DNA of 64,000 bases from a virus (IMGVR_UViG_3300037512_000782:32001-96000); one strand, 5' to 3'. Shown: positions 21,533-57,443, counted from the stretch's first letter. Notes: generated from the sequence alone by a model not told the origin. A program made the numbers and translations.

Positions 21533-22816
21533 TTAAGCGTTGTAGGTACACTTCCTCAAGAACATACCGTTACCATAAGTCATCATGGTACGGCCATTCT
21601 CAAATCCGTGCTGAAGCACGAGGTCGGGGCAACCAGAATTGCGCACCATCATCGTGAACACGTCAAGCGGAAGGACGATTTCGAAGCCCGGCTTTTCGAC
21701 TTGGCAGTCACCAACGCTGATGTTGACGTGAATGCGTTCGTCTTCCAGACCTTCGATACCGATAAGGCCATCTTCGATACCATAGATGCGAGCCTTTCCA
21801 GTCGGATTGACATGGTTGATTTCGAAGTACATACCGATGGCAGCCGCGATAGATTCAGCCTTGATGTGGAACACACGCTCAAGTCCATCGTTGTTGTATG
21901 TCTTCAAGGTGGCATCACCGATGTCAGTTTCGAGAGTAGCGAACATACCAGAAATACGGAGCTTCTTGTTCTTAGTATCGAGATCGATAATGACATTGAG
22001 CGACAAGTCAAGGTCAAGCGCATTCACGAGAGGAATGGCCTTAAAGATCTTGGCTGGAATGCTGACGCTGAAGTCAGACGTATTGTCATACTGCTTTGCG
22101 CCTTCGCTGTTGTCGTTCACCATCACAGTATTCTGCATGGCGGTCGCAATGGTGCAATGTTCATCACCAGTTCGGTAAGACACACGACCATTCTTGCGGT
22201 GGATTTCGACAGTTTCGAAATTGTACACGCTGTCGAGAATCGTGTTAAAGGACATCTGATCCATTGCGATACGGACGTTGAAGTCGTCATCGCTGGCCAG
22301 CTTCACTTCAAACGGTTCGCACGGATTGAATCCGATTTCGAGTTCGAAACCGCCGATACCATCATTGAAGAAAGCACCTAGATAAAGCTTGCCTTCGCTG
22401 ACCCACAGAGCTGCAGTCTTTTCAGCAGTGCCCATCAAGTGACGCACAGCGTTGCAGAGGTCGTAAATCTTGATGAACACTGGGCCATCAAGTTCTACGG
22501 AAACCGGAAGAGCATCCATCTTCACATGGATACCGCTATCGGTGTCAATATGGAGCCAGATCTTGTTGTCCTTCGGATCCACCTTGGTTTCGAGCCTTGC
22601 GACGGTTTCCGTATCGAGCAGAGACTGTTCGATAAGGGCAAGACCTTGTCCGAAACGGCCTTGCAGCACGAACATGGTCAACGGCAAATCTTCGCCAGTG
22701 GACACTTCCTCGGCAGCATCTTCGGTCGTCGGAGCCAACTTGTTGAAGTCTTCAAGCATGCCGTGAAGCGAGCTTGCGCGAACTTTCTCGTCTTCTGTTA
22801 TTTTGAGTTCACTCAT
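21533..22816 (-). CDS. DnaN (beta-clamp)-like protein
   Basis: 427 aa with a three-fold pattern: LPVSVELDGPVFIKIYDLCNAVRHL, FSVSIPAKIFKAI, FEIVLPLDVFTMMV. Confidence 0.55.
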   Translation of the reverse strand: MSELKITEDEKVRASSLHGMLEDFNKLAPTTEDAAEEVSTGEDLPLTMFVLQGRFGQGLALIEQSLLDTETVARLETKVDPKDNKIWLHIDTDSGIHVKMDALPVSVELDGPVFIKIYDLCNAVRHLMGTAEKTAALWVSEGKLYLGAFFNDGIGGFELEIGFNPCEPFEVKLASDDDFNVRIAMDQMSFNTILDSVYNFETVEIHRKNGRVSYRTGDEHCTIATAMQNTVMVNDNSEGAKQYDNTSDFSVSIPAKIFKAIPLVNALDLDLSLNVIIDLDTKNKKLRISGMFATLETDIGDATLKTYNNDGLERVFHIKAESIAAAIGMYFEINHVNPTGKARIYGIEDGLIGIEGLEDERIHVNISVGDCQVEKPGFEIVLPLDVFTMMVRNSGCPDLVLQHGFENGRTMMTYGNGMFLRKCTYNA

Positions 22817-22826
22817 AGTATGTTTC

Positions 22827-22845
22827 CTTTTGAATTTTAAATTAC
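22827..22845 (-). promoter_or_regulatory. Conserved 19-nt element (copy 2)
   Basis: Identical to 6989-7007. Confidence 0.5.
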
Positions 22846-22848
22846 ATT

Positions 22849-22875
22849 AAAAAGGCCGCATCGCTGCGGCCTCTT
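22849..22875. terminator. Intrinsic terminator
   Basis: AAAAAGGCCGCA-TCGC-TGCGGCCTCTT. Confidence 0.75.
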
Positions 22876-22893
22876 GAAATTGTGTCGTTTCGA

Positions 22894-24438
22894 CTAGATG
22901 TTGGTCAGCGAGGCAGCAGACTCTTGGGTCTTGTCAGCTGGTTGCTGGGAAGGGCCGACATCGGCACCCAGCTCATCTTCTTCAGTGCCGAACGCGAAGT
23001 CTTCGCCTTCTGGCGGAAGGTCGACTTGTTCACCGCCAACTTGATCCATCATCGCGCCGAACGAACCATCGTTCATGAAGTCGTTCGACGCGGTAAGAGC
23101 GCTAGGATCAGCCGGAGCATCCAAGTCAAATCCGTCGGTGGAGGCAGCAGCACCACCACTACCGAATGCGGTTTCACCCGGCAATGACAAGTCAGAAGTG
23201 CTCATGTCAGACGGAGACGCAGTCGGAGCATTCATTGCATCTGGGAAGATTTCAGTGAGCTTGTCGTTAAACTCGGTAAGCGAAACATCGGCAGTCTGCG
23301 GGTCGTCAAGATAATCCAAGAATTCTTGAATCTTTTCTTCAGGAACTTGGTTGCGCTCCAGTTCTTGGAACTCCTTGAAGAACGCATTGAACACATCCTT
23401 CGGATCCTCGTTCTTCATCGGCTTCGTACCGTTATAGATTTCAGACGGACTCAGCGAGAAACCACGTCCAGTCTGGCCGCCTTCCTTGGCATCTTGAGAC
23501 ATCTTCTGAGAAAGAATCTTGCCCAATGTGTCAAGAGCTTGATGGCTGACGCTAGACATGTTGTCGAAGATTGCGCTCTTCATGTCGACAAGAGCATTCT
23601 TGTCATCATCGCCGCCATTGACATCGCCAGCGCCAATGGCGTTGTTTTCCATGCCAGGGATGTTCTCTGGAGGAGCGATGTCTTGTTCTTCGCCGTCCAT
23701 CGCGAACGCTTCTGCGCCCGGTGCTTGTTCGCCATCTTCAAGCAAAGTAACAGCGTTACACATATTCAACAGCTGCGCAAGGCCGCTGTCCACGCATTCG
23801 TGATAAATGGAACTGTCGGTGGCCATCCATGAATTGCTGGCGTCCTCGGTTCCGTTGCTAAGGCCATTCAATGTCTGCATCGTATCGAGATCGTTTCCGA
23901 CGTCGTAAGTGTTGTTGGAGTCGATAAGTTCGTCGCAAGTCTTCAAGATTGTATAGCCGAAGTTGTTGACGAACTGAGGACTCTGCAAGGATACTTCGTA
24001 AAGGTTCGACAGACCAGTGTCCGAAGTCAGCTTCACGGAGATATTTTCGTTTTCGTTCGGATAGAACAGCTCGACAAGCATATCATGGTCACGACGGTTG
24101 ATGATGAACTTGCAGTGAGTTTCCTTCATGTCGATACTTGCAAGGTTCATGCGCATGCCACGGTAGGCGGTATTGGTCACGGCTTCCGTAAAGACCTTCT
24201 TGTAGAGGTCGCGGGTCGTAATCAAGTTCTTGCCATATACCAATGGCTTGTTCTGGTCGTAGGTACGGTGATCCCAGTCGTCGCCATCTTGGGGCTTCTT
24301 TACTGGGTCTGGAATCTGCTTTGTCAGCATCTTAATCACTTTCGTCTTTGAAGGAACTATAGGGCCGCTCTGCGTGGTCACGTAAACATAGTCCTTCATT
24401 GCCTTGAGAAGCGTATTCTTGTCGATCTGGGTTCCCAT
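22894..24438 (-). CDS. Hypothetical acidic protein (late class, likely virion/head associated)
   Basis: Start MGTQIDK chosen because it lies 28 nt after TATAAACT (24467-24474); very acidic C-terminus. Confidence 0.7.
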   Translation of the reverse strand: MGTQIDKNTLLKAMKDYVYVTTQSGPIVPSKTKVIKMLTKQIPDPVKKPQDGDDWDHRTYDQNKPLVYGKNLITTRDLYKKVFTEAVTNTAYRGMRMNLASIDMKETHCKFIINRRDHDMLVELFYPNENENISVKLTSDTGLSNLYEVSLQSPQFVNNFGYTILKTCDELIDSNNTYDVGNDLDTMQTLNGLSNGTEDASNSWMATDSSIYHECVDSGLAQLLNMCNAVTLLEDGEQAPGAEAFAMDGEEQDIAPPENIPGMENNAIGAGDVNGGDDDKNALVDMKSAIFDNMSSVSHQALDTLGKILSQKMSQDAKEGGQTGRGFSLSPSEIYNGTKPMKNEDPKDVFNAFFKEFQELERNQVPEEKIQEFLDYLDDPQTADVSLTEFNDKLTEIFPDAMNAPTASPSDMSTSDLSLPGETAFGSGGAAASTDGFDLDAPADPSALTASNDFMNDGSFGAMMDQVGGEQVDLPPEGEDFAFGTEEDELGADVGPSQQPADKTQESAASLTNI

Positions 24439-24481
24439 GGAAATATCCTGCATGTGCTTGCTTTTCAGTTTATACAAATGC

Positions 24482-24514
24482 AAAAATGCGGCGAGCGCTG
24501 ACTCACCGCATTTT
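24482..24514. terminator. Intrinsic terminator after gp45
   Basis: AAAAATGCGG(C)GAG...CTC(A)CCGCATTTT. Confidence 0.7.
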
Positions 24515-24531
24515 GTACCCATGACATAAAT

Positions 24532-25422
24532 TTACTGAACCAAGTCGAACTGGGAATAAGCGCCAGCGGAGCATTCAGCCGCACCCATCCAGAGAGTCAT
24601 CGGCTTTTCTGGATCGGCACCAGGGATAAGCGAAGTTGCCTTGAGGGACATCTGCTCGACACCCTTGAACGATGCGTAGGTGATGTCGATGTCGTATTCT
24701 CCGCCGATGCCCTTCATGTAGTTGAAGAGCTGGACTGGGAACACGGTGACGGTGCCCGGTCGGAAAATCTTGTGGACAAGCTGCGTATCGATGCCGCGAG
24801 TGCATGTCGACGGTACGCAGTAAGTAATCTGCTGAGACATCTTGCCCTTGATGTAGAGCTTGATGCCGCCGTCGTCGATACGGAGAGTCACGAACTCGCA
24901 CGTCGGAACCGCACGGAGCTTCGTAACAAAGTCCTTGACCATATCCTCGGAGAAGTGCATTTCACCGACCTTCATCATAGGGTCGTTATCCCTAGTGAAC
25001 GGAATGTGAGAATGGCCTTCCTTGAAACAGCTGGGGTCAGCAGTCGGCGTACGGCAAGTGATACCGCCACCAGAAAACTTGATGTACTCGTAACGGCGAC
25101 CAGTAATCGACGTGTCTACGGACAGTTCAGCCGTGCCGCGCTTGGGGAAGTTGGCCAGTTCCGCATACTTCACAAATTCATTCAGCGAGAAGATGTTGAT
25201 GCGGTTGGTATCGAAATCCAAGTCTGCATCCGATGCAGCAAGGTGTGTCATCATCGCCATGTCTGGAACGCTGATGTGGTTTCCCGGAATACGGCCCTTC
25301 ACGTTACCCTTGAACATGATGACGCATCCAGTCTTTGTAATAGAACTGATGTTCTTCAAGATCTTGTAGAACGGTTCGCTAAAACGAATGCCTACCGCTG
25401 GTTTTTCAATTTCTTCAGCCAT
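24532..25422 (-). CDS. gp45: Sliding clamp (gp45-like)
   Basis: FSEPFYKILKNISSI and INIFSLNEFV match the T4 gp45 LS......LKNFA.IN and IYDLN.FL patterns; TADPS. Confidence 0.75.
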   Translation of the reverse strand: MAEEIEKPAVGIRFSEPFYKILKNISSITKTGCVIMFKGNVKGRIPGNHISVPDMAMMTHLAASDADLDFDTNRINIFSLNEFVKYAELANFPKRGTAELSVDTSITGRRYEYIKFSGGGITCRTPTADPSCFKEGHSHIPFTRDNDPMMKVGEMHFSEDMVKDFVTKLRAVPTCEFVTLRIDDGGIKLYIKGKMSQQITYCVPSTCTRGIDTQLVHKIFRPGTVTVFPVQLFNYMKGIGGEYDIDITYASFKGVEQMSLKATSLIPGADPEKPMTLWMGAAECSAGAYSQFDLVQ

Positions 25423-25441
25423 GTTTAAACCTCGGCTATCA

Positions 25442-25470
25442 AATATAGTCTAAATGTATTTTGGATTCAA
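25442..25470 (-). promoter_or_regulatory. Early/middle promoter TTGAAT-17-TATATT
   Basis: Variant of the class, upstream of gp45. Confidence 0.55.
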
Positions 25471-27651
25471 ATCGCCCTTCGTGACCACTTTTTTGCCGAT
25501 TTCGACGAATTTCGGCTCAAGCTGGTTCCACTCAAGCGGCGTAAACGGAGCATTGACATCGACACACCAGCTGCAGTCAACCTCGATCTGCTGCATGCGA
25601 GCCTCCAGACGGTGCATCATCATGGAAACGACGTATGGTACGCAGCCCCTACCGTCACCAAACTTATACAGCTTGCCGAAGTTCTTCAAGATGGGAAGGT
25701 AGCCGCCACGGATAGCGACGAACGGCCCGTCCAGAACGGCAACGTCATGCGAACCAGTGACAGACACGGTTCCAGCAACACGGCGGTTGTACATTCCGTC
25801 CTTTGTCGAATATTCGCTATACATGCCATAGGTATTAGGGCAGCGCATCCAAGTGCCATCCGGCAAGAAATTCTCATAGCCGAACGGAGCGACAGCACCT
25901 ACATCGCTAGGGACGGCTTCGAGCTTTTGTATGAACGACGGATCATATATCAGCGAAGACGCATGGGCAAGTACAATCCAAGAAGGCGGAACCTTCGGAT
26001 TCACCTTGACAATCTTTTCAGCGACACGAGCGATGTTGAGGAATATCGACATCTGCGGATTGCTCTTCTTGCACATCCTTACTGGCTGGTCACTAGCCAA
26101 GTAGACAAGTTCATCACGACTGGAGGCATACTTCTTGTATGGAACCTTGACGTCGGATCCCTTGCGCCTATAAAGAATGGTAATCACGCACGGCGTCTTA
26201 CTGTGCTGCAAGATCGTGTTATTGTCAAGACGGATTGTCTCGACCGGGCGGATACCCAGAGCCTTGCGAAGCTGGTTCTTCTCGCCTTCTTCCTTGGCGC
26301 GTTCCGCATATACGGTACGCCTACGGTCTTCTGCGCGAAGTTCGTTTTCGTACAAGGCAGCCTTGATGGCGACTTCGAATTCGTCCATCACCGGGGTCTC
26401 CCATACAAACTGCTTGGACGTCTTCTTACGAGTCTTCGCAGCAGCCACTCCAGCCTTGTGACGCTTGTAATAGGCAGCACGACGGTTCGTCTTGTTTAGC
26501 TTGTCCAGATGTTTCTTCTGGAATTCGGAGAGTTCCATCTTCGGATCGACATTGACTCCAGAAGCGACAATGGCGTCAACATCCTCTTGAACCCAGCCCC
26601 ACATCGGATACATCGGCCAGCCCTTGGCTTGTACCTCGGCACAATGGGCATTGTACTCGTCAACCGTCATCACGCAATAGTCCTTCGACTTCTGAATGTG
26701 CATCAGCTTGGGAGGAGCAACGACGCGGCACTTACCGGATATCAAGTTGTCAATCCAGTAATTGCTCTTGCCGAACTTTGTACGGATAGCGAAACGGTTG
26801 TAATACGGCTTGCCTTCACAATAGAAATAACGGCGGTTGATCTGGTCGCATAGCTCATCGAGTTCGGACTTCTTGAACAAATTCCTCGTGCGAGCGCCAA
26901 CCTTGACTTGCTCTGGATGCAGAAGCTTCATGAATATGAACTTCGTTAACGTGCGACGAGAAATCTTCATGTATACGCAAGCCATGCCAGTAGTCAGCAC
27001 GTCTGGAAGAGGCTCCTTCTTTATCAAACGGCTACCTTTCTTTACGGTCTCGTTGATAGAGTCGTTGACATACTGGATGATGTTCTCACGAGTCATCCAC
27101 TTGTATCGCTTGCGGCCAGTCGTACTGTGAATCCAGAACGCGATGTTCGCCTTGCCAGCTCGGCAAGCTGCTCGGAGCTTTCCCGGTGTCGTACCGATGA
27201 ACGTAGCGCTGTCCTTGACATTTAGAGTCTTGGGAAGGAACTTGAAATTCTTGGACGGCACGTAGTTCTTGAGGAACCAGTCGTAATCACGGAAGTAGAC
27301 GAACTTGCCGTAATCGTCGGCTGGCTGTTCCTTGATAATGCCCTTTCTGACCAGTCGCAGATACGTCATCGGACTTACATCCAAGTCAGCGACGATTTCA
27401 GCCGGACGGATCTTTGCGTAAGGGTGCGTAGTGCAAGGAGGTTTCAGACCATAGGCTGAAAGCTTCTTCAGACACGCATCGTAACGGTATTTCTTCTGGC
27501 CTTGATAATTGACTATGTAAGGTATCCCATCAAAGAAACCCATTCCCTTCAAGTCAGAAACCGGACGGTCAAGATACTGCGCAATCTTCAACGGCTGCAC
27601 ATATTCATCTATACCCTTCTGTTTCAACGCACCAAGAGCCATTAGAACCAC
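25450..27651 (-). CDS. Multi-HTH (excisionase/MerR-like) basic protein fused to a degenerate GT-A (GT2-like) domain
   Basis: LNVKDSATFIGTTPGKLRAACRAGK; VLTTGMACVYMKISRRTL...LFKKSELD; C-terminal WIVLAHASSLIYD, DVGAVAPFG, VAVLDGPFVAIRG. Confidence 0.55.
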   Translation of the reverse strand: MVLMALGALKQKGIDEYVQPLKIAQYLDRPVSDLKGMGFFDGIPYIVNYQGQKKYRYDACLKKLSAYGLKPPCTTHPYAKIRPAEIVADLDVSPMTYLRLVRKGIIKEQPADDYGKFVYFRDYDWFLKNYVPSKNFKFLPKTLNVKDSATFIGTTPGKLRAACRAGKANIAFWIHSTTGRKRYKWMTRENIIQYVNDSINETVKKGSRLIKKEPLPDVLTTGMACVYMKISRRTLTKFIFMKLLHPEQVKVGARTRNLFKKSELDELCDQINRRYFYCEGKPYYNRFAIRTKFGKSNYWIDNLISGKCRVVAPPKLMHIQKSKDYCVMTVDEYNAHCAEVQAKGWPMYPMWGWVQEDVDAIVASGVNVDPKMELSEFQKKHLDKLNKTNRRAAYYKRHKAGVAAAKTRKKTSKQFVWETPVMDEFEVAIKAALYENELRAEDRRRTVYAERAKEEGEKNQLRKALGIRPVETIRLDNNTILQHSKTPCVITILYRRKGSDVKVPYKKYASSRDELVYLASDQPVRMCKKSNPQMSIFLNIARVAEKIVKVNPKVPPSWIVLAHASSLIYDPSFIQKLEAVPSDVGAVAPFGYENFLPDGTWMRCPNTYGMYSEYSTKDGMYNRRVAGTVSVTGSHDVAVLDGPFVAIRGGYLPILKNFGKLYKFGDGRGCVPYVVSMMMHRLEARMQQIEVDCSWCVDVNAPFTPLEWNQLEPKFVEIGKKVVTKGDLNPKYI

Positions 27652-28790
27652 ACCTCTACTTTCTGTTTTGCTTGCATCTTCTGTACCAGCTGCAGACGAG
27701 TCTCGCGCTGCTTCTGGCGTTCACGTGCGGCCATGTCGCCGCGTTCGAGAGCGAAGATAATAGCCGCGCCTTCTGGCGGCAAGCTACGACCTTCGATAAA
27801 TTCACTGGAAACGTAGCCGTCGTCATCGACTGGCATCTCGCCAGACAGAACGGCTCCGTTGACATCCTTTTCCTTTATTCCAGACCAGTTGAACCACTTG
27901 TACCCCTTCTTGACGGATTCGATACGAGCAAGTTCACCAGCGTTGTCGTTATCCCAGATGACCGTACAGTTTTCCTTGTGCTCTGCAATCTGCGGATTGT
28001 CCGCAATGACTTCGTCAAAGTGCGAGATGCCGCCGATGGCGATAGCATTGCGAATGAACGTAGAGTCAATCGTTCCTTCCAAGATGTAGAACGGCTTGGT
28101 CACATCGAGGAAGTCGATGTTGTACGCTTGACGCTTGACGCCTTCGAAGTTTCGATAGCGCAGCTTGTTATCGGGGTCTAGCGCACGAGCGTCGAACTGC
28201 GTCCACGCACCGCCGTACTTGTAGAACGGAATGATCAGACGGTTCTTGAACTCGTTGCCGATCGGACGTCCTTGCTCGTTCAGCACGAGTCCGCCCAAGT
28301 CGTCGCGCTTCAAGAACTGGTCGCCTTCCTGGCATACGAACCAAAGGTCATACACTTCTGGACGAATGCGGCGTCCTTGACAGAAAGCCACTGCTTGTTC
28401 CGCGAGAGGATGATGGTCTAGTAGAGAAATGAGTTCGCCATCTTCGAACGGCAAGTCGACTTTCTTCTTGGGCAAGACTTCTTCTCGCTTGTCGTCAGAC
28501 CTATCGCCGTCGAAACCGAACAGAAGCATTCGCTTGTATGCGGCGTCGTCATTCTCCTTCAAGTATTTCATGAAGTGCATGCTCTGTCCGCATTTATAAC
28601 AACGGAACAGCCAACGGTCACGATAGACGTAAGCCTTCTTCTTGTTCGGTCTTGCTGGATCACCACAGAACGGACAAATGAAATTATAGTATTGGGACTT
28701 CTTCTCTAATGCGAAAGAGTTGTCGCCGAATTCAGCTTCCACCGCTTCTTCCAGCGCCGCATCAGGAATATTAGCATAGGAAAAGGACAT
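27642..28790 (-). CDS. gp61: DNA primase (gp61-like)
   Basis: CPFCGD...CYKC zinc finger; RLIIPF; TOPRIM EG.IDS and WDND. Confidence 0.93.
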   Translation of the reverse strand: MSFSYANIPDAALEEAVEAEFGDNSFALEKKSQYYNFICPFCGDPARPNKKKAYVYRDRWLFRCYKCGQSMHFMKYLKENDDAAYKRMLLFGFDGDRSDDKREEVLPKKKVDLPFEDGELISLLDHHPLAEQAVAFCQGRRIRPEVYDLWFVCQEGDQFLKRDDLGGLVLNEQGRPIGNEFKNRLIIPFYKYGGAWTQFDARALDPDNKLRYRNFEGVKRQAYNIDFLDVTKPFYILEGTIDSTFIRNAIAIGGISHFDEVIADNPQIAEHKENCTVIWDNDNAGELARIESVKKGYKWFNWSGIKEKDVNGAVLSGEMPVDDDGYVSSEFIEGRSLPPEGAAIIFALERGDMAARERQKQRETRLQLVQKMQAKQKVEVWF

Positions 28791-28875: not shown

Positions 28876-30051
28876 CTAGAATGGCAGTTCGGTATCGTCG
28901 TCATCGCCTTCTGGCAACTGGTTGGCCATCGCAGCGGCGGTAGCGGCCTGAGCGGCAGCGCGACGTGCGGCGAACGCATTGTTAGCAGCCGGAGCTTCTT
29001 GTGCCGGAGCAGCGCTAGCGCCGCTTACGAGCATTTCGTCTTCGTCTGGTTCCTTTGCGGGGGCTGGATCCATGTCGGCGGAGTTGCCGAGGAAGTCAGC
29101 ACCAGCAACCTTGGTAGTTGCACGGTTGGCGTAATTCGGATTCGGAGCCGCGCCGAAGCTAGCGTTGCTGGCCGTGAAGCCACCTTCGCCATCACCAGCG
29201 GACTGAGCGTTGGATGCCTTCTCAAGGAATTCACGCCACTTAGCGGCAGCAGTTGCTTCGTCCGGAATATCGGCCAAGAACTTTGTTAAGTCATGGCAGT
29301 TATTGAGGATTTCGAGCATTTCTTCCTTCGTGTCAGCGAGCGGAGTCGATTCTGCCACGTAGTCAGAGCCGTCGTAAGAAGTCATGTTCTTTGCAGCATC
29401 CCAGCTGACAATAACACCAAAGTCGACACCCTTGGTCGGAGAGTGAGGAATGAACTTGCGGCGTTCCTTCTTCATCTTGGCCAAAGCGCCCTTGGCTGGG
29501 GCACCATTTGCATTCTGGACTTCAGCTTCGACACTGTCATCGAACGGGGCTCGTAACGTGCGTTCCACAGCGTCGCTGTGACGCCACACGAGAACCTTAC
29601 CATTGTTGGCAGACTTGTTATCGTCTTCACGAACGAGGATGTTCGTATGCCATTCCGGACGAGCAGTCATGCCAGTCCATACCTTGAGGTGCTTGTCACC
29701 CTTTTCGTACTTCTTGGCGAGTTCGTTATAGCGATCCCAAATTGCGCGGCAGATGGGGCAGTCCTGGCCCGGTGTGTTACGGCAGCACTTCACTTCCATG
29801 TGAACGCCATTCAACTTGAGGTGGTGATAAAGAACCTTCACGCTCGGATAGGTCTTGTTCTTGACGCCTTCGATACCTTGCGGCAGAAGACGGATGATTG
29901 CGCTGTAGCTAGGATTGCGCTTGCTCACGCTAGGCTTCCAGCGAGTCGGGTCAACTTTGCCACCAATCGAAGTGGCTTCGTCGAGGTTGGACACGGTGTC
30001 GATGTCGAGATCGAGAAAATCGGCATCAGCTTGGGTATTCTTGGTAGTCAT
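28876..30051 (-). CDS. gp32: Single-stranded DNA-binding protein (gp32-like)
   Basis: D.TRWKP, AIIRLLP, CPIC, NILV.ED...NGKV, acidic tail ending DDDDTELPF. Confidence 0.92.
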   Translation of the reverse strand: MTTKNTQADADFLDLDIDTVSNLDEATSIGGKVDPTRWKPSVSKRNPSYSAIIRLLPQGIEGVKNKTYPSVKVLYHHLKLNGVHMEVKCCRNTPGQDCPICRAIWDRYNELAKKYEKGDKHLKVWTGMTARPEWHTNILVREDDNKSANNGKVLVWRHSDAVERTLRAPFDDSVEAEVQNANGAPAKGALAKMKKERRKFIPHSPTKGVDFGVIVSWDAAKNMTSYDGSDYVAESTPLADTKEEMLEILNNCHDLTKFLADIPDEATAAAKWREFLEKASNAQSAGDGEGGFTASNASFGAAPNPNYANRATTKVAGADFLGNSADMDPAPAKEPDEDEMLVSGASAAPAQEAPAANNAFAARRAAAQAATAAAMANQLPEGDDDDTELPF

Positions 30052-42539: not shown

Positions 42540-42599
42540 TTTCGACCTAAATGCGCTAATCAACTGATAAACTACTTTAAAATTGCATCGAGACCACAA

Positions 42600-49200: not shown

Positions 49201-49665
49201 TGACAACGGCGTATGACGGCGAGTCGGGGTCAGATTGTAAATAGTATCCTTGATGACTTTCGCAAACTTAGTGCCAATCTTCTTGAACGGGTTAGTCTGG
49301 CCAACTTCGTTCTGGCGATCGATCAATCTCTTCATAACGGCAGAGGCATGCTTGAACATACTTTCGTCCGCCAAGTTCTTCAAGTACACAGCCAACGGAT
49401 GCACTACAGACGCCATCTCGTAAATATAACGACGGCGAGAATCTGGCCTCGTATTGTCACGAAGACCGCTGTTCCAACCGCCATCCTTCTCGACCATGTC
49501 GGCAACCACATCAAGAACAGCGCCGACTTCCTTATCGAGCTTGTAATTAGCCCACGACAATTCGTATTTAGTATTATCGTCGCCTTGAAGCTCCTGAACT
49601 AGACCATAGAGTTCAGACAGTTCTGATGAAGTACTAACCACGTTTTCAAGCAATGCTTCGGCCAT
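43219..49665 (-). CDS. Very large (about 2150 aa) hypothetical, mostly helical protein, probably virion-associated
   Basis: Uninterrupted ORF; ATG 28 nt after GATAAACT (49694-49701); N-terminal ALLEN; C-terminal PKPK tract. Confidence 0.8.
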   Translation of the reverse strand: MAEALLENVVSTSSELSELYGLVQELQGDDNTKYELSWANYKLDKEVGAVLDVVADMVEKDGGWNSGLRDNTRPDSRRRYIYEMASVVHPLAVYLKNLADESMFKHASAVMKRLIDRQNEVGQTNPFKKIGTKFAKVIKDTIYNLTPTRRHTPLSQDYAASNTVDSMLGVVAGKINKIYETVQSILKVTGISKSVSEEDAKNAAWLLFACYAIPRDLYGKDFAGKPSSPNAQNPSHWYNPDDSMVRQLYNLIANAWRTKDDAPQYDLSSMTDSLDEIDDNAKVNDRDEINSGDYIEKDMSTIGDETSQSNVLNDKTGCTCETYIKVFSVEFLRHLKYNGLTSKLVYRVLQMMFEDVGMPMSTDPVDAASAADFADEFCDRIASIATSTDTAIGLHTQLAGMLREYYDALDSRPKQNDVYDQDFAKFCSRLGLHEVDGETVEAIRDALDSVAKNIIFVGGNSVSGKTVDGTSINAVKMPSAVAIFSTESTNDRKKKEGLTAAGLATTKLFRYDPENEELVVGYDDSITGTSGVVDTIPRMEIRNHYKDYISSGLVPVRISENPSWVMLQGLKSYSYLKNGNMDDSERVSPLVNKLLDIDATSNVVKDTKTSQHAKATMALSNSKFVDKLVYTHLIPQGASLKERTLLADSVYKRSQGTNLSELLTKTRVLCSNVTKAVSEFANSVGGRYSASVETVYNYAPKLMTLVSGKSEAINGFVSKMSGAMVESADSALITVLCDVVSTYKDARLYSAGNMPWLLLTVLHDYVRMSDRLVRYAYSHKDSPVAPIVQQLYPANYREVSAEVNALFDSISNAANKTAEAKKPENSVKIINACKILIADRENAVDDLSKLADSMTNSLTDNPELASLKTLRSRLNDAVNTSDLSTRDILAVVNAIANTMPGNSIANMTALKKLRINQFDQYVRVMKTLLDAGQQLNVEEPESASAIPPTYDIPEGGEKSLAELNAMAPQNELNAKLQTAELDADNAQTDIVPSSDVAEESVDGLKSVIQVFSKYQGAATTHSESSSELGDYMTDAMNLPDAPQESDNWDTADWVKFYIGHPNVKLGYRKHAAKCLTRMEQSQKQLDASEDEINNLISQHPEYQGLLYAMVNDEVTLDQMKTVLKDYSIAVNALNELVHYASNDDAAAARNNGVAVKRMFAYTSSDESVMAQLVYVLTNYLTKPAETQYNELLDVLANVRNTVEKFSKNPLSLRLVDYAYNSVKADSDPEQLFTNIVKVITDIGDKFLDRLEGNAELPILRGMNKVDSPASPSDKYGKATDSFARSLLRAGDKDTAKESTATGKTDTKEAKARMAYLPYVKADLAENMELSKYAYMLGKAFNTYDRIMRDERVSANELEKRVFHSTLSSLKGSLLFAKGLCSNDLQRELLSALMDDERKGDKNYPTLASVYAAAKNGTDIGSYSLMHGGSVGTADKIVNDQRSVALAFNDKGSKVAPGTGSGIDAVTISELVFGDAQHVYKDDDMASLAHDLRMNVFNKLVNTYGAVDELGEVNFNSDYKNSATELLAEAIKSLYRICDDMETPISAVITVSTSLGQRAGRANVMSYVSDSLKNEVDMDFDTMSMVSGETNAYPQRVSGEQSRVDYDWVDQFADIISKIPEELTPNELLSCVEAYCQNEKAQQQMMANPKYAEVVRIINDTLRIETSTGVPTGLWGDTSTARKDTINRLFNAVVNGMDDDKTWAQRAVELKQQFMETLKKGGNILSFAGVMPSEAARKRVGHLRMNPYYAVTMPTNASDVNSVIKALRDDGIVEYNGAMVHLKYPGMSLDKNTFRYIVMMSIEINHKIKAYDECDAFNTALMFYSTGVRFDAFIELLERTSQLDNIDSVAVSNATNAIAKSFDVKPYGDMVRTNLGWFTIPAYDALCLSAAMDKRGPVHGFKISVDALTGGISSEEYDAMISAVDKERADESRAVKSDLLDAAVGIISKAYNVSRDDGLVKCRLGSMTDRMFDALCYSSVPRDIDVNDPKFAETVLAKFKQLYTNMATGNRVSYDIRDVSRKGHSSNGAETVDVDEENIDDVDGDNEEPTSTVVGADGTERTFGGKSNGTPKPKPHANVPAKPAKVKEPKPKPTPKPKANPEPELTGDEMIDSMPMKQKRPKKRKASAAAPVVQQAQEYDAADLDFMDM

Positions 49666-49693
49666 TGGAATCACCCATATTTAATCGGCAAAT

Positions 49694-49772: not shown

Positions 49773-51746
49773 ATGACATTCGATGAATACATAAATCCCA
49801 AGCTAGCCGACATTGAGAAGCAGTCGATCAAGGACACGATCGCTGGGCTCAAGAGTTTGGTCGCAAATCCAGACAACGTTTCCAAGGACGAAACAAAGTT
49901 ATCGGCTGCCATCAATATCGCAAAAATTTTGATGGGCGGAAAAGGCATTAAGCGCAATGACACCGTCATACCGCCAGAGCAAATATGGACGGCGGTCAAT
50001 AATGCGCCACCAGCACAGCTAAATTTCTTGTCTAAGCCCAGAACCGAGAAAGACGCCGTAGCGGCAATGGTTAAGAAACTTCAAAAGGCCGCACCGAAGA
50101 CTGACGTACTGGCAGCAGATTCGTTGCTTGACGACAACCCGGCAGCAGTCGCCGACAATGATGCTCAGAAGGCTGAAGAAGTACAGAAAGCCGAAGAAGT
50201 ACAGAAAGCCGAGGAAGCACCGAAAGTCGAGAAAGTACAGAAAGCCGAGGAAGTACAGAAAGCCGAAGAAACACCGAAAGTCGAGAAAGTGCAGAACGCT
50301 GAGGAAGCACCGAAAGCCGAGGAAGCACCGAAAGTCGAGAAAGTGCAGAAAGCCGACTTCGATCCGTTAGGCGTGTGGGGTGCATTTGATGATCCAGACT
50401 TAAATATTGACGATGCTGCACCTTTGAGCATAAATGCAGACAATACTCCAGCAGTAAAGTCCGGGCAATTAAACGACAATTCTCAAGATAATACGCTTGT
50501 GGTTAACCAGTCGTTGCCAGCAGCAAATCAAGCGGCAGCAACTCAAACAGCAGCTCCAGCAGTGAAAACTCCAGCAGCGAAAACTCAAGCAGCGGCAATT
50601 CCAGCGGTGAAAACTCCAGCGGTGAAAACCCCAGCAGCGGCTCCAGCGGCAGCACTGCCGACCGAAGATATTCACCAGCAAAACGACGATCCGGATATCC
50701 CAGACACGGCAGACCCAAGGGACGAATTCAGCGACCTCTACGACGAAATCGACAATCTTTCGATCTCGGCAGAGCAAGCCGAAGAAGCCAAGAAGTATGC
50801 CGACCTGGTATTGACCGAGCCTAACGACTATCCTCGCGAATACGCCATATTGTCTGGCGGTGCTTCCGCAAACCGTACCAAATGTGTTAAGGCGATGCTA
50901 ATAACCGCCAACAAGCGTATAGGATATAAGGCCCCGGTGTCCAAGCGTGGAGACGACAAGCTCGACTTCCAATCTGGTGTGGTATCCCAGTCCAAGGGTC
51001 GCCCTCGTGTTGGAGCGTCCCTTGTCATGCCGTCTGGTTTCGGTTTGAAGAAAAATGCAGCCATTTGGAATACTCCGGTCATTACCGACTTCGGCTATCC
51101 ATTCCTCAACTTCAGTAGCGAAGCCATGCTCAGCGTCATAAAGTCCAAGAAAGATGACGAAGCACTCAAGAATAGCAACTTGAAGAAGATGTTTAAGGAA
51201 GCGGCCAAGCGCTATGGCGGCATCTGGAAGGCGATCTATTCATCGCCGCTGACCCTCATTCGCCAGATTGCATCCGACGTCGGCATCAAGTGTACACCTA
51301 AGTACTTGAAGGTCGATGGTTCAGACTTATTGAACTCCGACTCTGGCGAAAACGTGACGGTCATTCCGATCAAGTATTACAGTATCGACCCAGAGTTCGA
51401 AGGATTCATCAACGTACCGCGTGACTTCCTCACGACATTCTACGATGTCATCGACTACAGCAGCACATCGAAGCGCATGTACTTGAAGTACGCACAAGGA
51501 ATGTCGGAAGAAGAGTTCGCTGAAGAGATTTCGGAAAATCGTGGTGTGCCACCGTTCTACATTCTCGTGCCCAAGCAAGCGAAGTTCAGCAAGTGTCACA
51601 TTCGCGGCGGTAGCCTATTAGGTTCCCTAATGAATGTCATTTTGGGACGCAAGAAGTGTACGATGGTCAAGACAGTATTCCAAGGCAAGCGCGGATGCCT
51701 CGCCATGGAGACCGATACAGCTAACACACTATACGCCGATATCTAG
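49773..51746 (+). CDS. Hypothetical protein with internal repeats; paralog of the next gene
   Basis: KAEEVQ/KAEEAP/KVEKVQ and PAVKT repeats; C-domain DFGYP, DPEFEG, GVPPFYILVP. Confidence 0.8.
   Translation: MTFDEYINPKLADIEKQSIKDTIAGLKSLVANPDNVSKDETKLSAAINIAKILMGGKGIKRNDTVIPPEQIWTAVNNAPPAQLNFLSKPRTEKDAVAAMVKKLQKAAPKTDVLAADSLLDDNPAAVADNDAQKAEEVQKAEEVQKAEEAPKVEKVQKAEEVQKAEETPKVEKVQNAEEAPKAEEAPKVEKVQKADFDPLGVWGAFDDPDLNIDDAAPLSINADNTPAVKSGQLNDNSQDNTLVVNQSLPAANQAAATQTAAPAVKTPAAKTQAAAIPAVKTPAVKTPAAAPAAALPTEDIHQQNDDPDIPDTADPRDEFSDLYDEIDNLSISAEQAEEAKKYADLVLTEPNDYPREYAILSGGASANRTKCVKAMLITANKRIGYKAPVSKRGDDKLDFQSGVVSQSKGRPRVGASLVMPSGFGLKKNAAIWNTPVITDFGYPFLNFSSEAMLSVIKSKKDDEALKNSNLKKMFKEAAKRYGGIWKAIYSSPLTLIRQIASDVGIKCTPKYLKVDGSDLLNSDSGENVTVIPIKYYSIDPEFEGFINVPRDFLTTFYDVIDYSSTSKRMYLKYAQGMSEEEFAEEISENRGVPPFYILVPKQAKFSKCHIRGGSLLGSLMNVILGRKKCTMVKTVFQGKRGCLAMETDTANTLYADI
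50167..50356 (+). repeat. Coding tandem repeat, 18-bp unit, about 10 copies
   Basis: Variants of CAGAAAGCCGAGGAAGTA / CCGAAAGTCGAGAAAGTG. Confidence 0.85.
50556..50652 (+). repeat. Degenerate coding repeat (CCAGCRGTGAAAACT; PAVKT)
   Basis: Several 15-bp units. Confidence 0.65.
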
Positions 51747-51750
51747 CCAT

Positions 51751-51766
51751 TGTTTCACGTGAAACA
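51751..51766. promoter_or_regulatory. parS: parS centromere-like site (ParB/Spo0J binding)
   Basis: Perfect 16-bp palindrome TGTTTCACGTGAAACA, identical to the canonical bacterial chromosomal parS consensus; intergenic. Confidence 0.85.
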
Positions 51767-51767
51767 T

Positions 51768-51796
51768 CAAAAATCCGTCTTTAGAGGCGGATTTTT
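51768..51796 (+). terminator. Intrinsic terminator
   Basis: AAAAATCCGTCT-TTAG-AGGCGGATTTTT. Confidence 0.75.
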
Positions 51797-51807
51797 CGTA
51801 TTTAATT

Positions 51808-51815: not shown

Positions 51816-51841
51816 AACCATAGATTAAATTCGAGTTTCTG

Positions 51842-53416
51842 ATGGCCACCAACGAAAAGAATCTTCTTGAAAGTGAAAACGATGATAAGGCAATCGCCGC
51901 AATCGACCACACCTTGGATATGTGGGTCAAAGATGACGCGCAAAAAGCCAAAATAAAAGAAGCAATCATGTCTTCGTTCAAAGCTGACGCCAGCAACTAC
52001 GATAAGTTCACCGAGGATCCAGTTAACTATACTCGCGCATACATCGAAAAAGCTACAGAAGCTCCAGCGGAACCAGTACCGACCGATGTAATTTCGCCGA
52101 AAGAATCCGACGAAACACCAGCCGATGATGATAATGGCGAACCAGAAACACCAGAGGAAGAAGATGAAATCAAGGAGACAGCGCTTGATAATCTCGCCAA
52201 GATCTATCCGGTAATTGCCAAGGAATACAAGCTCCGCTTCCGTAACAACGGCGAGGATGCTGAAAAGCTCGCCGAATACACTCTCAAGATTGTCGAAGGC
52301 AGGGGCACTAACGCCGCCAAGTGGAAGCAGTACCTCGACGAAAAGTGCAACAAGGGCACCAACAAGGCGATGATCCAGAATAAGGTCATTCCAACGCTCG
52401 TGAAGGCTTACAATGCCAAGGGTAAGGACGAGATCGAACTTACACGCCAAGTCAACGACGAGCAAACCGCTGGTCTCAAAGACCGCAACGGAAATGACGC
52501 TGGCCATATAATCGTACCGGAAGGTTTCAACCAGCCGCCTATCGAACTTGGTGACCAAGTGGTCACTATGGACTTCGGCTATCCGGCGATCAACTTCAAC
52601 AGCACCTTGATCAAGGAAATCGTTGGCGAGACCGACAAGCCGCGCCTCAAGAAGCTCCTCATAGCTCTCATGAACCGTATCGACGGTTCGCCAGCTGGCA
52701 AGGCATTGATCAAGAACTTCATCTTCAGCTTCTCACTCACCAAGACCACCAATGGCGTTAAGCGTTCCGAAATGTACAAGCTCATCAAGGAAGCCGCATC
52801 AGCACAGGGTATTCCGATGCTCCGTCGTCCGTTGAAGGTAGAAAGCGAACAGCTCGTTGGAAAATCCGAAGCCGACACGATTAAAGTTCAGCCGTTGAAC
52901 GCAGTCGCCAATCCGAAGAACGAATCTCTCGACTTCCTCGAATACGATCCGTTGTTCGAAGGCTGGTTCTCAGAAAAGGTTCTCGGTCGGAGCAAGGACG
53001 AGAATGAACAGCATGTATACGGCAAGCCAGTCGAACTACCATCGGCCTACGTCAAGCAGTTCTACACCGTCTTGGTTCCGAGTGGCCCGACTGGTCTGCA
53101 CTACTACGCTCGCTACATGACAGATAGTGAACGAAACGCCATCTACAAAAAGCTCGGCGACAATTCCGAAGACGAAATCAAGACCGGAAACCGCAACGTG
53201 AACGACATGATTCTCAAGCGCTACCTCGATGAAACGAATGGCGTTCCGCCGTTCTATCTCCTCATGCCGCGCACCAAGCCAACCAAGGAACGTCTCCGCG
53301 TCTGCGACGACACTGTCGTAAACGGAAAGGTATGTATCAAGTCGATCGAAGGCAAGAACAAGGATGCATACTTCATGGACAAGGACAAGATCGACTCCGT
53401 ATTCGAAGCTGGTTAA
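51842..53416 (+). CDS. Hypothetical protein, paralog of 49773..51746
   Basis: DFGYPAINF, YDPLFEG, FYTVL, GVPPFYLLMP; N-terminal NLLES. Confidence 0.8.
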   Translation: MATNEKNLLESENDDKAIAAIDHTLDMWVKDDAQKAKIKEAIMSSFKADASNYDKFTEDPVNYTRAYIEKATEAPAEPVPTDVISPKESDETPADDDNGEPETPEEEDEIKETALDNLAKIYPVIAKEYKLRFRNNGEDAEKLAEYTLKIVEGRGTNAAKWKQYLDEKCNKGTNKAMIQNKVIPTLVKAYNAKGKDEIELTRQVNDEQTAGLKDRNGNDAGHIIVPEGFNQPPIELGDQVVTMDFGYPAINFNSTLIKEIVGETDKPRLKKLLIALMNRIDGSPAGKALIKNFIFSFSLTKTTNGVKRSEMYKLIKEAASAQGIPMLRRPLKVESEQLVGKSEADTIKVQPLNAVANPKNESLDFLEYDPLFEGWFSEKVLGRSKDENEQHVYGKPVELPSAYVKQFYTVLVPSGPTGLHYYARYMTDSERNAIYKKLGDNSEDEIKTGNRNVNDMILKRYLDETNGVPPFYLLMPRTKPTKERLRVCDDTVVNGKVCIKSIEGKNKDAYFMDKDKIDSVFEAG

Positions 53417-53419
53417 TTT

Positions 53420-54894: not shown

Positions 54895-54938
54895 AAGCGT
54901 TACACCTAGTTACTGATGAAATTAGTTCATTTCATAGT

Positions 54939-56573
54939 TTAGGCGGCGTTGAAGTCAACTGGCTGGCACTGACGGCTTTCCATTTCGTCGATGAACAACT
55001 GATCCGGACGTTCCGGCAAGGTAGCCTCGTACTCGTATTCGTACTCGATATCGGTGTGTGTAGGAATGTCTTGGTTGAGAAGTTCCTCATCCATGATGCA
55101 GCGAACATGATCGGCATACTGCTCCGGCACGATAATGGAGTCATGCACCGTGCAGAAATGGCAACCGACTTCCTCGATGATACGAGGGCAGACTTGATCG
55201 AACACGAAGCTGCTCTCGATTTTCTGCATTTCATAAGCCAACGCGGCATGGCAATGTTCCTTCAGCGACCACATGCAGTTGTAGAGGTTGGGGAAGTGTT
55301 CACGCCAGCAACGCTGAACCGCACCACGGATCGGCTCACGCTTGGTATCGAAGTACAGCGGAGAGAACAAGAAGGAAAGCAATCCCTTCTTTGCTTCGTC
55401 ACGAGTCAGCTGCCTACCGATATCTTCGTCGGCACTGCATTCGCTCTGGAAGAATTCGTATATCTTGCCTTCCGCCACCAAGTTACGGTAACGGTCGAGC
55501 TCGGCTTCCATGCGGCCAAGGACGAGATCCTTGCGGCCAGCATTCCAGATCGGCTTGAAACGGAGGAACGTATCGCGGTTCTCGGTGAGGTCATTGCGAT
55601 AGAAGTCGATATAACGACGGAACACGGCAATGATGAAGGCCGCTTGAGAAGACTTGATATCGACTTCGGCAACCTTGTCTCCATCGCAGCGCAATGCGGC
55701 ATGACGGATTTCCTTCTTCATGTTCGTCACGTTCGTATGGATACGGCCATACTTGTCGTGCTTCACATAAAGGTCTCCGTCTTCGTCAAGGAGGCCGTTG
55801 AAGCGCTCGATCTTGCAACGTTCAAGGTCGGCATTGTACGGAGCCATCTTGCCGTTCTCGACCATTTCATTCAAGGTAGCATCAGCCACATTCGCATCAA
55901 TGGAGAAGTGGCTCAGCTCGTCATAGCAAATCGCCACTACTGGATCTTCCATAGATACGCGCTTGCGTTCCTCGAAGGACTTCTGGATACGCTTCAAGAC
56001 TACCGGAGAAGTGATCGTGTACTTGGACATCGTGCCGCGCACAACGACTTCGGTATTCTTGAGCTTCTTGTCGAGTCTGGTCTGCAGATAGGTAGCGTAG
56101 CTGTTCTGGTACGGAGCGCAAAGCCAGAAAGCCTTGCACTTTCCCTTACGGCTGGAGTCACCCTTGATGTAGCTCTGAGAACGGCCAATGAAGCCATTCT
56201 CGACCAAGGTGTTGATGGCAGTGATGTAGCCGTCACCGAGGAACTTGTGGAGCAAGGCAGCAGAAAGGTGGGTCTTCCAATACTTACGAGGAATCTTGGG
56301 CTGCACAACCATATTGGTCATGAGGTCACTACGGAGATGGCTCGTAACCATGTAAAGGACGAGTGCCATCGTATCAAGTAAAGTCTTGTTTACAGGAGAA
56401 TGTCCGTTCTTTGTCGTAAAATCGTGACAAAATGACACAAAACCCTTGTAGAGCATAGACGGCAGTTCAATCTTGAACTCAGTCTTAGGCTTACGACGCT
56501 TGGTCTTCTTGGTTCGGTTAAGGGTTTCGTCAATCACGTCCATAAAGTTAACAAAACTTCCCAAGTCCGGCAA
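54939..56573 (-). CDS. PolA / T7-RNAP superfamily polymerase-domain protein (TV-Pol-like), putative replication protein
   Basis: DKYGRIHT, motif A EVDIKSSQ, motif B RDEAKKGLLSFLF, YEMQKIES, motif C TVHDSII; no exonuclease domain; start either TTG 56573 or ATG 56543. Confidence 0.75.
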   Translation of the reverse strand: MPDLGSFVNFMDVIDETLNRTKKTKRRKPKTEFKIELPSMLYKGFVSFCHDFTTKNGHSPVNKTLLDTMALVLYMVTSHLRSDLMTNMVVQPKIPRKYWKTHLSAALLHKFLGDGYITAINTLVENGFIGRSQSYIKGDSSRKGKCKAFWLCAPYQNSYATYLQTRLDKKLKNTEVVVRGTMSKYTITSPVVLKRIQKSFEERKRVSMEDPVVAICYDELSHFSIDANVADATLNEMVENGKMAPYNADLERCKIERFNGLLDEDGDLYVKHDKYGRIHTNVTNMKKEIRHAALRCDGDKVAEVDIKSSQAAFIIAVFRRYIDFYRNDLTENRDTFLRFKPIWNAGRKDLVLGRMEAELDRYRNLVAEGKIYEFFQSECSADEDIGRQLTRDEAKKGLLSFLFSPLYFDTKREPIRGAVQRCWREHFPNLYNCMWSLKEHCHAALAYEMQKIESSFVFDQVCPRIIEEVGCHFCTVHDSIIVPEQYADHVRCIMDEELLNQDIPTHTDIEYEYEYEATLPERPDQLFIDEMESRQCQPVDFNAA

Positions 56574-56633
56574 GTCTCCATTGCAGGATATTGGAGTAAA
56601 TCAGACCAGCGGTGCTAGTCCGGTTTACTGCCG
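56568..56633 (-). promoter_or_regulatory. Structured RNA leader (three-way junction) upstream of the TV-Pol-like gene
   Basis: CGGCAG/UUGCCG closing stem enclosing the GUAAACCGGACUAGC/GCUGGUCUGAUUUAC and CUCCA/UGGAG hairpins. Confidence 0.55.
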
Positions 56634-56661
56634 AGTTTATCGTTCAGTTATACGGAGTACA

Positions 56662-56690
56662 AAGGTAGACTAAACGAGTTTGAATTTCAA
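56662..56690 (-). promoter_or_regulatory. Early/middle promoter TTGAAA-17-TACCTT
   Basis: TTGAAATTCAAA element. Confidence 0.65.
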
Positions 56691-56736
56691 GTTCGACCAT
56701 CAGTCCTTGTCTCACCCGGCACCACCGACCATGTTA

Positions 56737-56883
56737 ATGTTTCGAAATCAATAAGTCTGAGTATATGGTTTAGTTTACATAATATACTCAGAAAAGGGGT
56801 CGAAAGTAAGGTATAAAAGTTCAACGAAGCAGCCAGAGTGCTGCAGTCTTGCCCTACGGACGCCCCATATAGATGTTTCGAAA
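56737..56883. other. Candidate replication origin / operator region
   Basis: 11-bp perfect inverted repeat TCTGAGTATAT (56756-56766) / ATATACTCAGA (56782-56792); direct repeat ATGTTTCGAAA (56737-56747, 56873-56883); lies between divergent promoters. Confidence 0.4.
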
Positions 56884-56902
56884 AATGACTATTTAGGCTA
56901 AT

Positions 56903-56931
56903 TTGCAATTCAAATTGATAATGGCTATCTT
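56903..56931 (+). promoter_or_regulatory. Early/middle promoter TTGCAA-17-TATCTT
   Basis: TTGCAATTCAAA element; ATG 8 nt after the -10 box (nearly leaderless). Confidence 0.7.
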
Positions 56932-56939
56932 GTTCCATT

Positions 56940-57443
56940 ATGGCTTACACATCTTGTATAACAATCGAGTTACTATCAATGTTCCGCTGGAAGGAGACTG
57001 GGTGGAAGGCACCCGTGTCCTTGGTATCGCCGGATGTGACCATCCGTCTTGCAGCGCACGAGTCTTGCTCCAATAACAACTGGAAGCTTGACTTGGACGT
57101 GGAAAGTGTCGAGAACCATAATGAATGGGCCGACCCGTCCTTGCAAGACAAGATTGTTGCCGCCGTCATGAAGCGTTGCCAGCACGACGTCAAGGTCGTC
57201 CGCATCTTTGGCGCTTCGCTTCGCAATACCTACATCAACGGTATGAAGCGTTCGAACATGTTCTTTCCGACCGACTTCCGTGTGAATTTCAACTACAAGT
57301 ACAGATTCATCGTCGCGTTGGAAGGCGAGACCTACGAAAAGCTTGACGGTATTTACTTGGTTCCGTCCTACATCCCGGCACCGCGAGATGGCTTTGACGC
57401 CGAGCAGTTCTACAAGTTGTGCTGTTACGAGAGATTTGAATAA
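56940..57443 (+). CDS. Hypothetical protein
   Basis: 167 aa, TAATG-coupled to uvsW. Confidence 0.7.
   Translation: MAYTSCITIELLSMFRWKETGWKAPVSLVSPDVTIRLAAHESCSNNNWKLDLDVESVENHNEWADPSLQDKIVAAVMKRCQHDVKVVRIFGASLRNTYINGMKRSNMFFPTDFRVNFNYKYRFIVALEGETYEKLDGIYLVPSYIPAPRDGFDAEQFYKLCCYERFE

Follow-up and report, generated by a model that had tools for sequence, protein, structure and literature searches.

The plasmid-prophages P1 and N15 and the cluster-A mycobacteriophages encode their own ParA/ParB (or SopA/B) together with element-specific centromeres. The Bacillus phage phi29 carries five parS sites and exploits the host protein Spo0J to segregate its genome into the prespore (PMC2731898). In addition, ~30% of huge phages show a GC skew indicating bidirectional replication (PMC7162821), and for family-A polymerases of mobile elements a role as primase has been predicted or demonstrated (PMC2579912). 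Gut ecosystems are rich in huge phages, and the question is how genomes of 0.35-0.4 Mb replicate and are managed in the cell. Here, we analyzed a stretch of 64,000 nucleotides (nt) of phage DNA (the window; bases 32001-96000 of a 348,092-bp IMG/VR virus record, referred to as G000, with a CheckV completeness estimate of 91%) in which a parS site of the bacterial consensus lies beside a putative replication origin and a gene for a winged-helix/family-A polymerase-like enzyme. The window comes from a phage of a cattle-gut clade with genomes of ~350-420 kb and T4-type replication genes. We consider it fairly probable that the window holds the main origin and the replisome genes of this clade, with parS acting through host ParB.

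The G000 record recurs across cattle-gut metagenomes in at least ten studies. No DNA-level relative was found among 50,697 phage records, and a search of viral contigs with the gene for the 657-amino acid (aa) protein that precedes parS returned no relatives. Three relatives were assembled from pieces, namely G017 and G019, which are both complete with terminal repeats, and G004, which is 93% complete.

Putative main replication origin and the adjacent parS site

The features of the locus, counted from the first letter of the window, are as follows.

49773-51746, plus strand: 657-aa low-complexity protein, a paralogue of the product of the next gene, with its stop codon 4 nt before parS
51751-51766, no strand: perfect parS, TGTTTCACGTGAAACA, with a 16/16 match to the chromosomal consensus
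51769-51799, plus strand: terminator-like hairpin and T-run directly after parS, by sequence reading
51842-53416, plus strand: 524-aa paralogue of the 657-aa protein
54939-56573, minus strand: 544-aa protein with a TTG start, combining winged-helix domains with an exonuclease-less family-A/T7-RNA-polymerase (RNAP)-like (TV-Pol-like) polymerase (AlphaFold2 pLDDT 82.0; VIA)
56574-56939, no strand: 366-nt non-coding, origin-like region at the point where gene strands diverge (repeats, skew)

Over the whole G000 record, the cumulative GC skew reaches its minimum at genome position 86,837, i.e. position 54,837 of the window, beside the polymerase-like gene and ~3 kb from parS. The corresponding minima in the relatives lie at 154,213 (G004), 211,043 (G017), and 204,130 (G019). 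In all four genomes (348-422 kb) the minimum is 0.1-3.1 kb from the polymerase-like gene and, in G000, G017, and G019, it is 2.6-3.8 kb from parS. In each of these genomes, genes of either orientation have a negative top-strand skew on the left arm and a positive one on the right arm, such that 16/16 arm-by-strand classes carry the skew sign of their arm. Because the sign follows the arm and not the gene strand, the skew is not only transcriptional. The position of the genome-wide minimum together with the distribution of the skew by arm points to a primary bidirectional origin and not a second one, and we infer that the locus is the phage's main bidirectional replication origin, which would lie in or near the 366-nt gap. 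Because each genome has a single minimum, there is no room for an auxiliary origin at the locus.

The gap itself is non-coding: only motif blocks are conserved and the indels are not multiples of three. It contains TCGAAACATnnAnATGG twice as direct repeats (56729-56747 and 56865-56883), a sequence that occurs nowhere else in the 348-kb genome, as well as an 11-bp inverted repeat around an AT-rich spacer (56756-56792). Both TCGAAACATnnAnATGG copies are kept in the relatives L002-L004, in which the polymerase-like protein is 72-77% identical, while the DNA between the copies diverges in sequence and length. In the 45-48% subclade (L006, L008), a related repeat pair with the core GAAACATATAT lies upstream of the same polymerase-like gene. 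No DnaA box was found within 2.5 kb of the origin. As a separate observation on replication layout, the cumulative GC skew of G024, a 640-kb relative with 26% GC, has two separate minima at ~163 kb and ~480 kb, which hints at a different arrangement in that huge phage.

The parS site TGTTTCACGTGAAACA is present in a single copy in the 348 kb, and an exact 16-mer would be expected by chance about 8e-5 times per genome. The consensus that it matches is that of bacterial chromosomes, and the site is unchanged in a contig from an independent sample. In the subclade of the window, parS lies between the two paralogous low-complexity genes, which share the motifs DFGYP..NF and GVPPFY and homologues of which flank parS in L002 and L003, and it is placed just before the terminator; the same arrangement of parS plus terminator is found in L002 and L036. 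In G019, parS is positioned after a terminator and between convergent genes. Syntenic parS sites with 0-1 mismatch are present in G001 (three tandem copies), G002, G013 (two), G015, G016, G017, and G019 (two), and in the shorter contigs L020 and L026-L029. Their distance past the 3' end of the polymerase-like gene is 3-6 kb in G001, G002, G013, G015, G017, and G019 and 15 kb in G016, and they are always intergenic and adjoin a terminator. Thus, parS occurs at a corresponding position in two subclades, with 1-3 copies per genome, and its observed variants (a CATG core, T/C at position 5) are within known parS variation. We conclude that parS is under selection. RNA-library contigs of one study stop just past parS, a weak hint that a transcript ends there.

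A ParB_N domain was not found above the cut-off in G000 and 29 relatives, including the two complete parS-bearing genomes, and no AAA_31-type ParA was found in G000. The locus is, therefore, not a self-contained ParABS module, in which ParA and ParB encoded by the element lie beside the centromere. Because neither protein was detected, positioning of the phage genome would depend on host machinery. The simplest and most likely reading, by analogy, would be that the phage parS recruits host ParB, and parS probably works here in the way that is already known for phi29. Our literature search on host ParB on phage DNA found nothing direct.

Two further lines were followed. The Spo0A box TGTCGAA occurs 138 times in the genome versus 125 expected from a 5th-order Markov model, its sister words are equally common, and only one box lies in the 51-58 kb region; the threefold excess over a uniform expectation is due to composition, and we do not take these boxes as a sign of a phi29-like link to sporulation. 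The exact parS 16-mer is found in at least 119 IMG/VR contigs, many of which are short and several of which have 3-5 copies on 6-12 kb; these short multi-copy contigs may be plasmid-like or chromosomal fragments filed as viral, and a database-wide census of perfect parS sites is uninformative about phages.

As to the genes around parS, both flanking paralogues have long N-terminal regions of low complexity that are acidic or rich in Ala/Pro/Lys, with KAEEVQ and PAVKT repeats. In an independent contig, 786 other letters take the place of 374 nt at the start of the second paralogue (51842-53416). Between the gene for the co-chaperone DnaJ and the parS-flanking genes lies an open reading frame for 2151 aa (43219-49674) without a match in Pfam or PHROG, which is kept in relatives at 26-30% identity.

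The polymerase-like enzyme, the replisome block, and DnaJ

The 544-aa protein matched nothing in Pfam, PHROG, or NCBIfam and nothing among PDB sequences in single-sequence and profile searches; only fold comparison was successful. Residues ~203-520 (about 250 aligned) matched mitochondrial RNAP (6ymv; VIA Z 12.7), Klenow (1d9d; 12.4), and T7 DNA polymerase (2ajq; 12.2), such that family-A DNA polymerases and single-subunit RNA polymerases match the core, at residues ~203-503, equally well. Using Foldseek, the model matched apicoplast PolA (E 3.8e-4), and in BFVD it matched a compact phage "DNA polymerase I" (E 3.9e-18). Residues 36-199 have winged-helix matches only (Z 5-6); the matches to polymerases begin near residue 203 and a 3'-5' exonuclease domain is missing. 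D305, R391, K395, H477, and D478 are invariant in 40 homologues down to 22% identity, and by inspection these residues would correspond to motifs A (Asp), B (R-x3-K), and C (His-Asp). The family is wide, and weak matches (22-25% identity) extend to six records of uncultured phages with sizes of 595-735 kb. In the leader of the gene (56574-56640), ATAAACTC and the GC-rich segment ACCGGACTAGCACCGCTGGTC are kept in four relatives, and their conservation suggests that a promoter element and an RNA structure precede the TTG start.

Most genes of the window are unrecognisable by sequence, and the T4-type set is clear; it also includes an Mre11-like nuclease, a tail sheath protein, and a gp25-like baseplate domain. 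The replication genes and the gene for DnaJ are listed below.

15353-16396, minus strand: gp44-like AAA+ clamp-loader subunit (Pfam AAA 1.1e-11, DNA_pol3_delta2 9.4e-8)
16755-19712, minus strand: family-B (gp43-like) replicative DNA polymerase, PolB (Pfam DNA_pol_B 3.4e-31, exonuclease domain 1.4e-10)
21533-22816, minus strand: three-domain DnaN-fold sliding-clamp-like protein, 427 aa (AlphaFold2 pLDDT 82.6; Foldseek, ESM-Atlas)
24532-25422, minus strand: candidate gp45/PCNA-type clamp (phrog_223 processivity factor, E 1.4e-4; Atlas feature neighbours PCNA_N/gp45-slide_C 0.92-0.93)
27642-28790, minus strand: DnaG/gp61-type primase (phrog_47 8.5e-37)
28876-30051, minus strand: gp32-type single-strand DNA-binding protein (Pfam gp32 9.4e-15)
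31419-32921, minus strand: DnaB/gp41-type replicative helicase (phrog_19 6.5e-64)
32973-34238, minus strand: UvsX-type recombinase (phrog_97 3.3e-45)
41583-42677, minus strand: DnaJ co-chaperone, intact (Pfam J domain E 5.7e-19, central domain 1.2e-4)
57443-59218, plus strand: UvsW-like SF2 helicase, the first rightward replication gene (Pfam DEAD 8.5e-14, phrog_16 1e-66)

By fold comparison, the 427-aa protein has three tandem clamp domains in one chain, preceded by a disordered, acidic N-terminus (residues 1-42). The best 50 matches of its model in a Foldseek search of the PDB were all bacterial DnaN beta clamps (E down to 2.8e-16, TM 0.6-0.73), and among the 30 nearest ESM-Atlas models the only family set listed was "Beta sliding clamp", the best match having TM 0.68/0.77 over 344 aligned residues. 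The protein thus shares the three-domain clamp fold of bacterial DnaN over 344-420 aligned positions, but differs from it in an identity of only 9-14%, the lack of a Pfam DnaN domain, the extra acidic N-terminal tail, and a gene that lies beside that of the gp45/PCNA-like clamp. Searches of Pfam (including DNA_pol3_beta, _2, and _3), PHROG, and NCBIfam, of PDB sequences with the single sequence and a family profile, and of phage records for cultured relatives by tblastn gave no match. The family has only 22 cluster representatives among 1.84 billion proteins, and no DnaN domain was found in its most distant members. The DnaN-fold clamp is, therefore, a phage-only orphan family and not a host-type DnaN. 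Its gene belongs to the T4-type replisome block, together with those of PolB, the gp44-like loader, the gp45-like clamp, and the primase, at a distance of 33 kb from the origin, and the protein is probably a clade-specific extra, i.e. second, ring of the phage's own replisome that would be untied to parS or the origin. A complex prediction for its residues 43-427 with the 544-aa protein scored 0.00, which weighs neither for nor against binding. The assignment of 24532-25422 as the gp45/PCNA-type clamp is probable, though weakly supported. No Pol III alpha was detected in the phage.

At its C-terminus (16755-16904), the family-B polymerase has a putative clamp-binding peptide, DFMLSMF, preceded by an acidic stretch. 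This tail resembles both the bacterial QLxLF motif and the tails with which gp43 of T4/RB69 binds its clamp, and because of this double resemblance it could dock on either type of clamp. Also inside the block, 25450-27651 encodes a 733-aa basic protein with a weak HTH_17 match that overlaps the end of the primase gene and is a candidate DNA-binding factor. Farther along, a frame of 754 aa that continues past the end of the window matches SMC_N at 62749-63999 (E 1.5e-13) and probably encodes a Rad50/gp46-type nuclease ATPase rather than a condensin.

DnaJ has the HPD motif and four CxxCxGxG zinc-finger repeats by sequence reading, as is characteristic of DnaJ/Hsp40 proteins. Its J domain starts at a Met at residue 47, and the true start may be later than called. 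Because no Hsp70 was found in G000, DnaJ probably serves host DnaK as a general protein-folding co-chaperone and would, like the DnaN-fold ring, be untied to parS or the origin.

Proposed mechanism and alternative readings

In the mechanism that we propose, a single origin near 54.8-56.9 kb would fire in both directions. We tentatively suggest, as a prospect short of probable, that the winged-helix/family-A enzyme binds the repeat pair and provides the initial primer or transcript, from which the T4-type replisome, comprising PolB, the loader, the clamps, the helicase-primase, and gp32, would continue. Host ParB would load at parS and build a partition complex on the phage origin, with the consequence that host ParA/SMC would handle the phage chromosome like a host origin. 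The leading candidate for its purpose, in itself possible and held with some doubt, is to retain and segregate, in cells that divide or sporulate, a genome that is infecting or replicates slowly, by analogy with phi29; the next, and unlikely, one is that replicating copies are organised and separated via SMC. It is very doubtful that the clade runs an entire bacterial-style chromosome cycle with an enzyme-primed bidirectional origin, segregation by host ParB/ParA/SMC, stable carriage in dividing cells with neither integration nor partition genes of the phage, and a DnaN-fold ring that serves the origin-linked polymerase.

Several observations weigh against the proposal of a main origin with a parS that works through host ParB. 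The skew minimum is also where gene orientation flips, so part of the skew comes from transcription; the right-arm minus-strand genes of G004 have a skew of only +0.002; and the four genomes, which are syntenic, do not count as four independent observations. In the distant huge phages G024, G028, and G031, the polymerase homologue lies 82-418 kb from the skew minimum and adjacency to the origin is, therefore, not a property of the family. No parS was found in the close relatives L004, L006, and L008, so the site is dispensable; replacement variant palindromes were found neither at the syntenic gap in L004 and L006 nor in a scan of L008, and L004 keeps the terminator without the palindrome. Finally, because the clamp and the polymerase of the clade are recognisable only by their fold, a cryptic phage ParB is possible.

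We weighed these points against other readings of the same elements. If parS were a decoy, the multiplying copies would draw host ParB (and SMC loading) off the host origin and disturb segregation or division to the phage's favour. This would suit a site that matches the bacterial consensus in a phage with no detected ParA/ParB, that reaches three copies in G001, and that close relatives can dispense with, as expected of an accessory take-over device; however, a decoy could be placed away from the origin, whereas the site is close to it in three genomes from two subclades, and 1-3 sites per genome are few, which makes a decoy improbable. We give slightly less credence still to a palindrome that resembles parS only and is read by a phage protein (a cryptic ParB-like protein or another dimeric regulator) or forms part of a transcription stop. 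The palindrome always abuts a terminator, the proteins of the clade are often unrecognisable by sequence, and the ends of the metatranscriptome contigs just past the site agree, if weakly, with a stop. On the other hand, the palindrome matches the bacterial consensus at 16/16 positions and is conserved in subclades in which the polymerase-like protein is only 33-35% identical to that of this phage, with variants that stay within those known for parS; a terminator needs no such palindrome, and that of L004 is kept without it. Concerning the 544-aa protein, it is rather unlikely, though less so than the two preceding readings, that it is a repair/translesion DNA polymerase or an RNA polymerase for a gene class, its adjacency to the origin being inherited synteny. 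The location of distant homologues far from the skew minimum, the tie between RNA and DNA polymerases in the structural matches, motif C, which reads HDS as in T7 RNAP, and the presence of a DnaG-type primase in the phage all speak for such a role. Against it are the N-terminal winged-helix domains, the fact that the first ~70-260 residues are outside the matches of most distant homologues, and the position of the gene directly beside a unique conserved repeat pair; because the repeat motif occurs only at the gap, it is not a promoter for a gene class.

The remaining alternative is that of the initial annotation, in which the polymerase, the origin, parS, the DnaN-like clamp, and DnaJ formed a low-copy replicon that was based on host machinery and auxiliary to the lytic T4-type replisome. 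All five elements are real and present where they were placed, as a clamp fold, a polymerase fold, DnaJ domains, an exact parS, and a non-coding gap with unique repeats; moreover, the origin, the polymerase-like gene, and parS lie within 5 kb of one another, and because no integrase was found in G000, long-term carriage would have to be plasmid-like. Nevertheless, we regard this reading as the least probable of all. The parts are spread over 35 kb and interleaved with baseplate and other genes, which does not agree with one five-part unit. The co-occurrence analysis that had been proposed as a check, which we counted among 29 polymerase-bearing records, showed independent distributions among relatives, which is the outcome that the initial annotation had named as refuting it: the polymerase occurs widely, DnaJ is near-universal (24/29 records and 9/9 of the near-complete ones), the DnaN-fold clamp is clade-restricted (17/29), and parS with 0-1 mismatch is patchy (6/29). 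Thus, the near-complete G004 and G007 have the clamp, DnaJ, and the polymerase and lack parS, and G024, G026, G027, G028, and G031 have the polymerase and DnaJ and neither clamp nor parS. The skew minima of G000, G004, G017, and G019 at the locus, with the sign by arm, contradict a second replicon, and the coincidence of the origin with the genome-wide minimum contradicts a module that is separate from and redundant with the main replication system. The supposed host-type processivity clamp turned out to be the phage-only orphan encoded in the replisome block. Mimicry of a chromosome holds for an origin with a chromosome-type parS beside it but not for the auxiliary status, the minimum at the locus being that of the whole genome. 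Positioning would depend on the host, as no phage ParA/ParB was detected; no DnaA box within 2.5 kb of the origin and no Pol III alpha were found.

In total, the initial annotation is partly supported: what stands is a chromosome-like origin with a borrowed centromere, and what falls is the auxiliary five-part replicon, by which the attractive but unsupported notion of a hidden second replicon is removed. Sequence alone can place the main origin of such a phage to within a few kb. A bacterial-consensus parS beside it and no detected phage ParB suggest a route for recruiting the segregation and condensin machinery of the host. The exonuclease-less family-A polymerase with DNA-binding domains and the DnaN-fold ring are invisible to sequence annotation and represent clear targets for biochemistry.

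Comparison with known systems

The polymerase-like enzyme is similar to the TV-Pol and minimal family-A polymerases (Iyer, Abhiman & Aravind 2008, PMC2579912), with which it shares a palm-and-fingers core of 400-600 aa and the lack of an exonuclease, and some of which also have an extra N-terminal domain; the likeness here is by fold. CcPol-MP of SCCmec is likewise a minimal family-A polymerase tied to replication priming (PMC7581432). No D5-like helicase gene adjoins the phage gene, its neighbours being the UvsW-like SF2 helicase gene and small unknown genes, and among viral models those nearest to the enzyme are compact proteins, similar to "DNA polymerase I", from uncultured and jumbo phages. 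With the huge phages of Al-Shayeb et al. 2020 (PMC7162821), the phages described here share the V-shaped cumulative skew that indicates bidirectional replication, and the 595-735-kb records with weak homologues of the polymerase fall in the same size range; ParB is unmentioned in that text, "parS" not being among the terms searched there.

Bacterial chromosomal ParABS systems have the same 16-bp palindrome a few kb from the point of GC-skew divergence, whereas the phage has no cognate parAB operon, no DnaA boxes, and 1-3 sites only. P1, N15, and the cluster-A mycobacteriophages are, like the cattle-gut phage, phage genomes with a centromere, but their partition modules include their own ParA/ParB, of which none was found here. 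The closest parallel is with phi29 and Nf, virulent Bacillus phages that use host Spo0J/ParB: these are also non-integrating phages that have parS of the chromosomal consensus and no detected ParA/ParB, and the locus described here matches the phi29 type, i.e. a virulent phage with a consensus parS and no ParB of its own. The scale is different, with 19 kb and five sites in phi29 versus ~350-420 kb and 1-3 sites here and, in contrast to phi29 and Nf, the sites of the cattle-gut phages lie at the GC-skew minimum, i.e. at the putative origin. With the origin-proximal, bacterial-consensus parS, the precedent set by phi29, a Bacillus phage of 19 kb, would be widened to giant phages that are uncultured.

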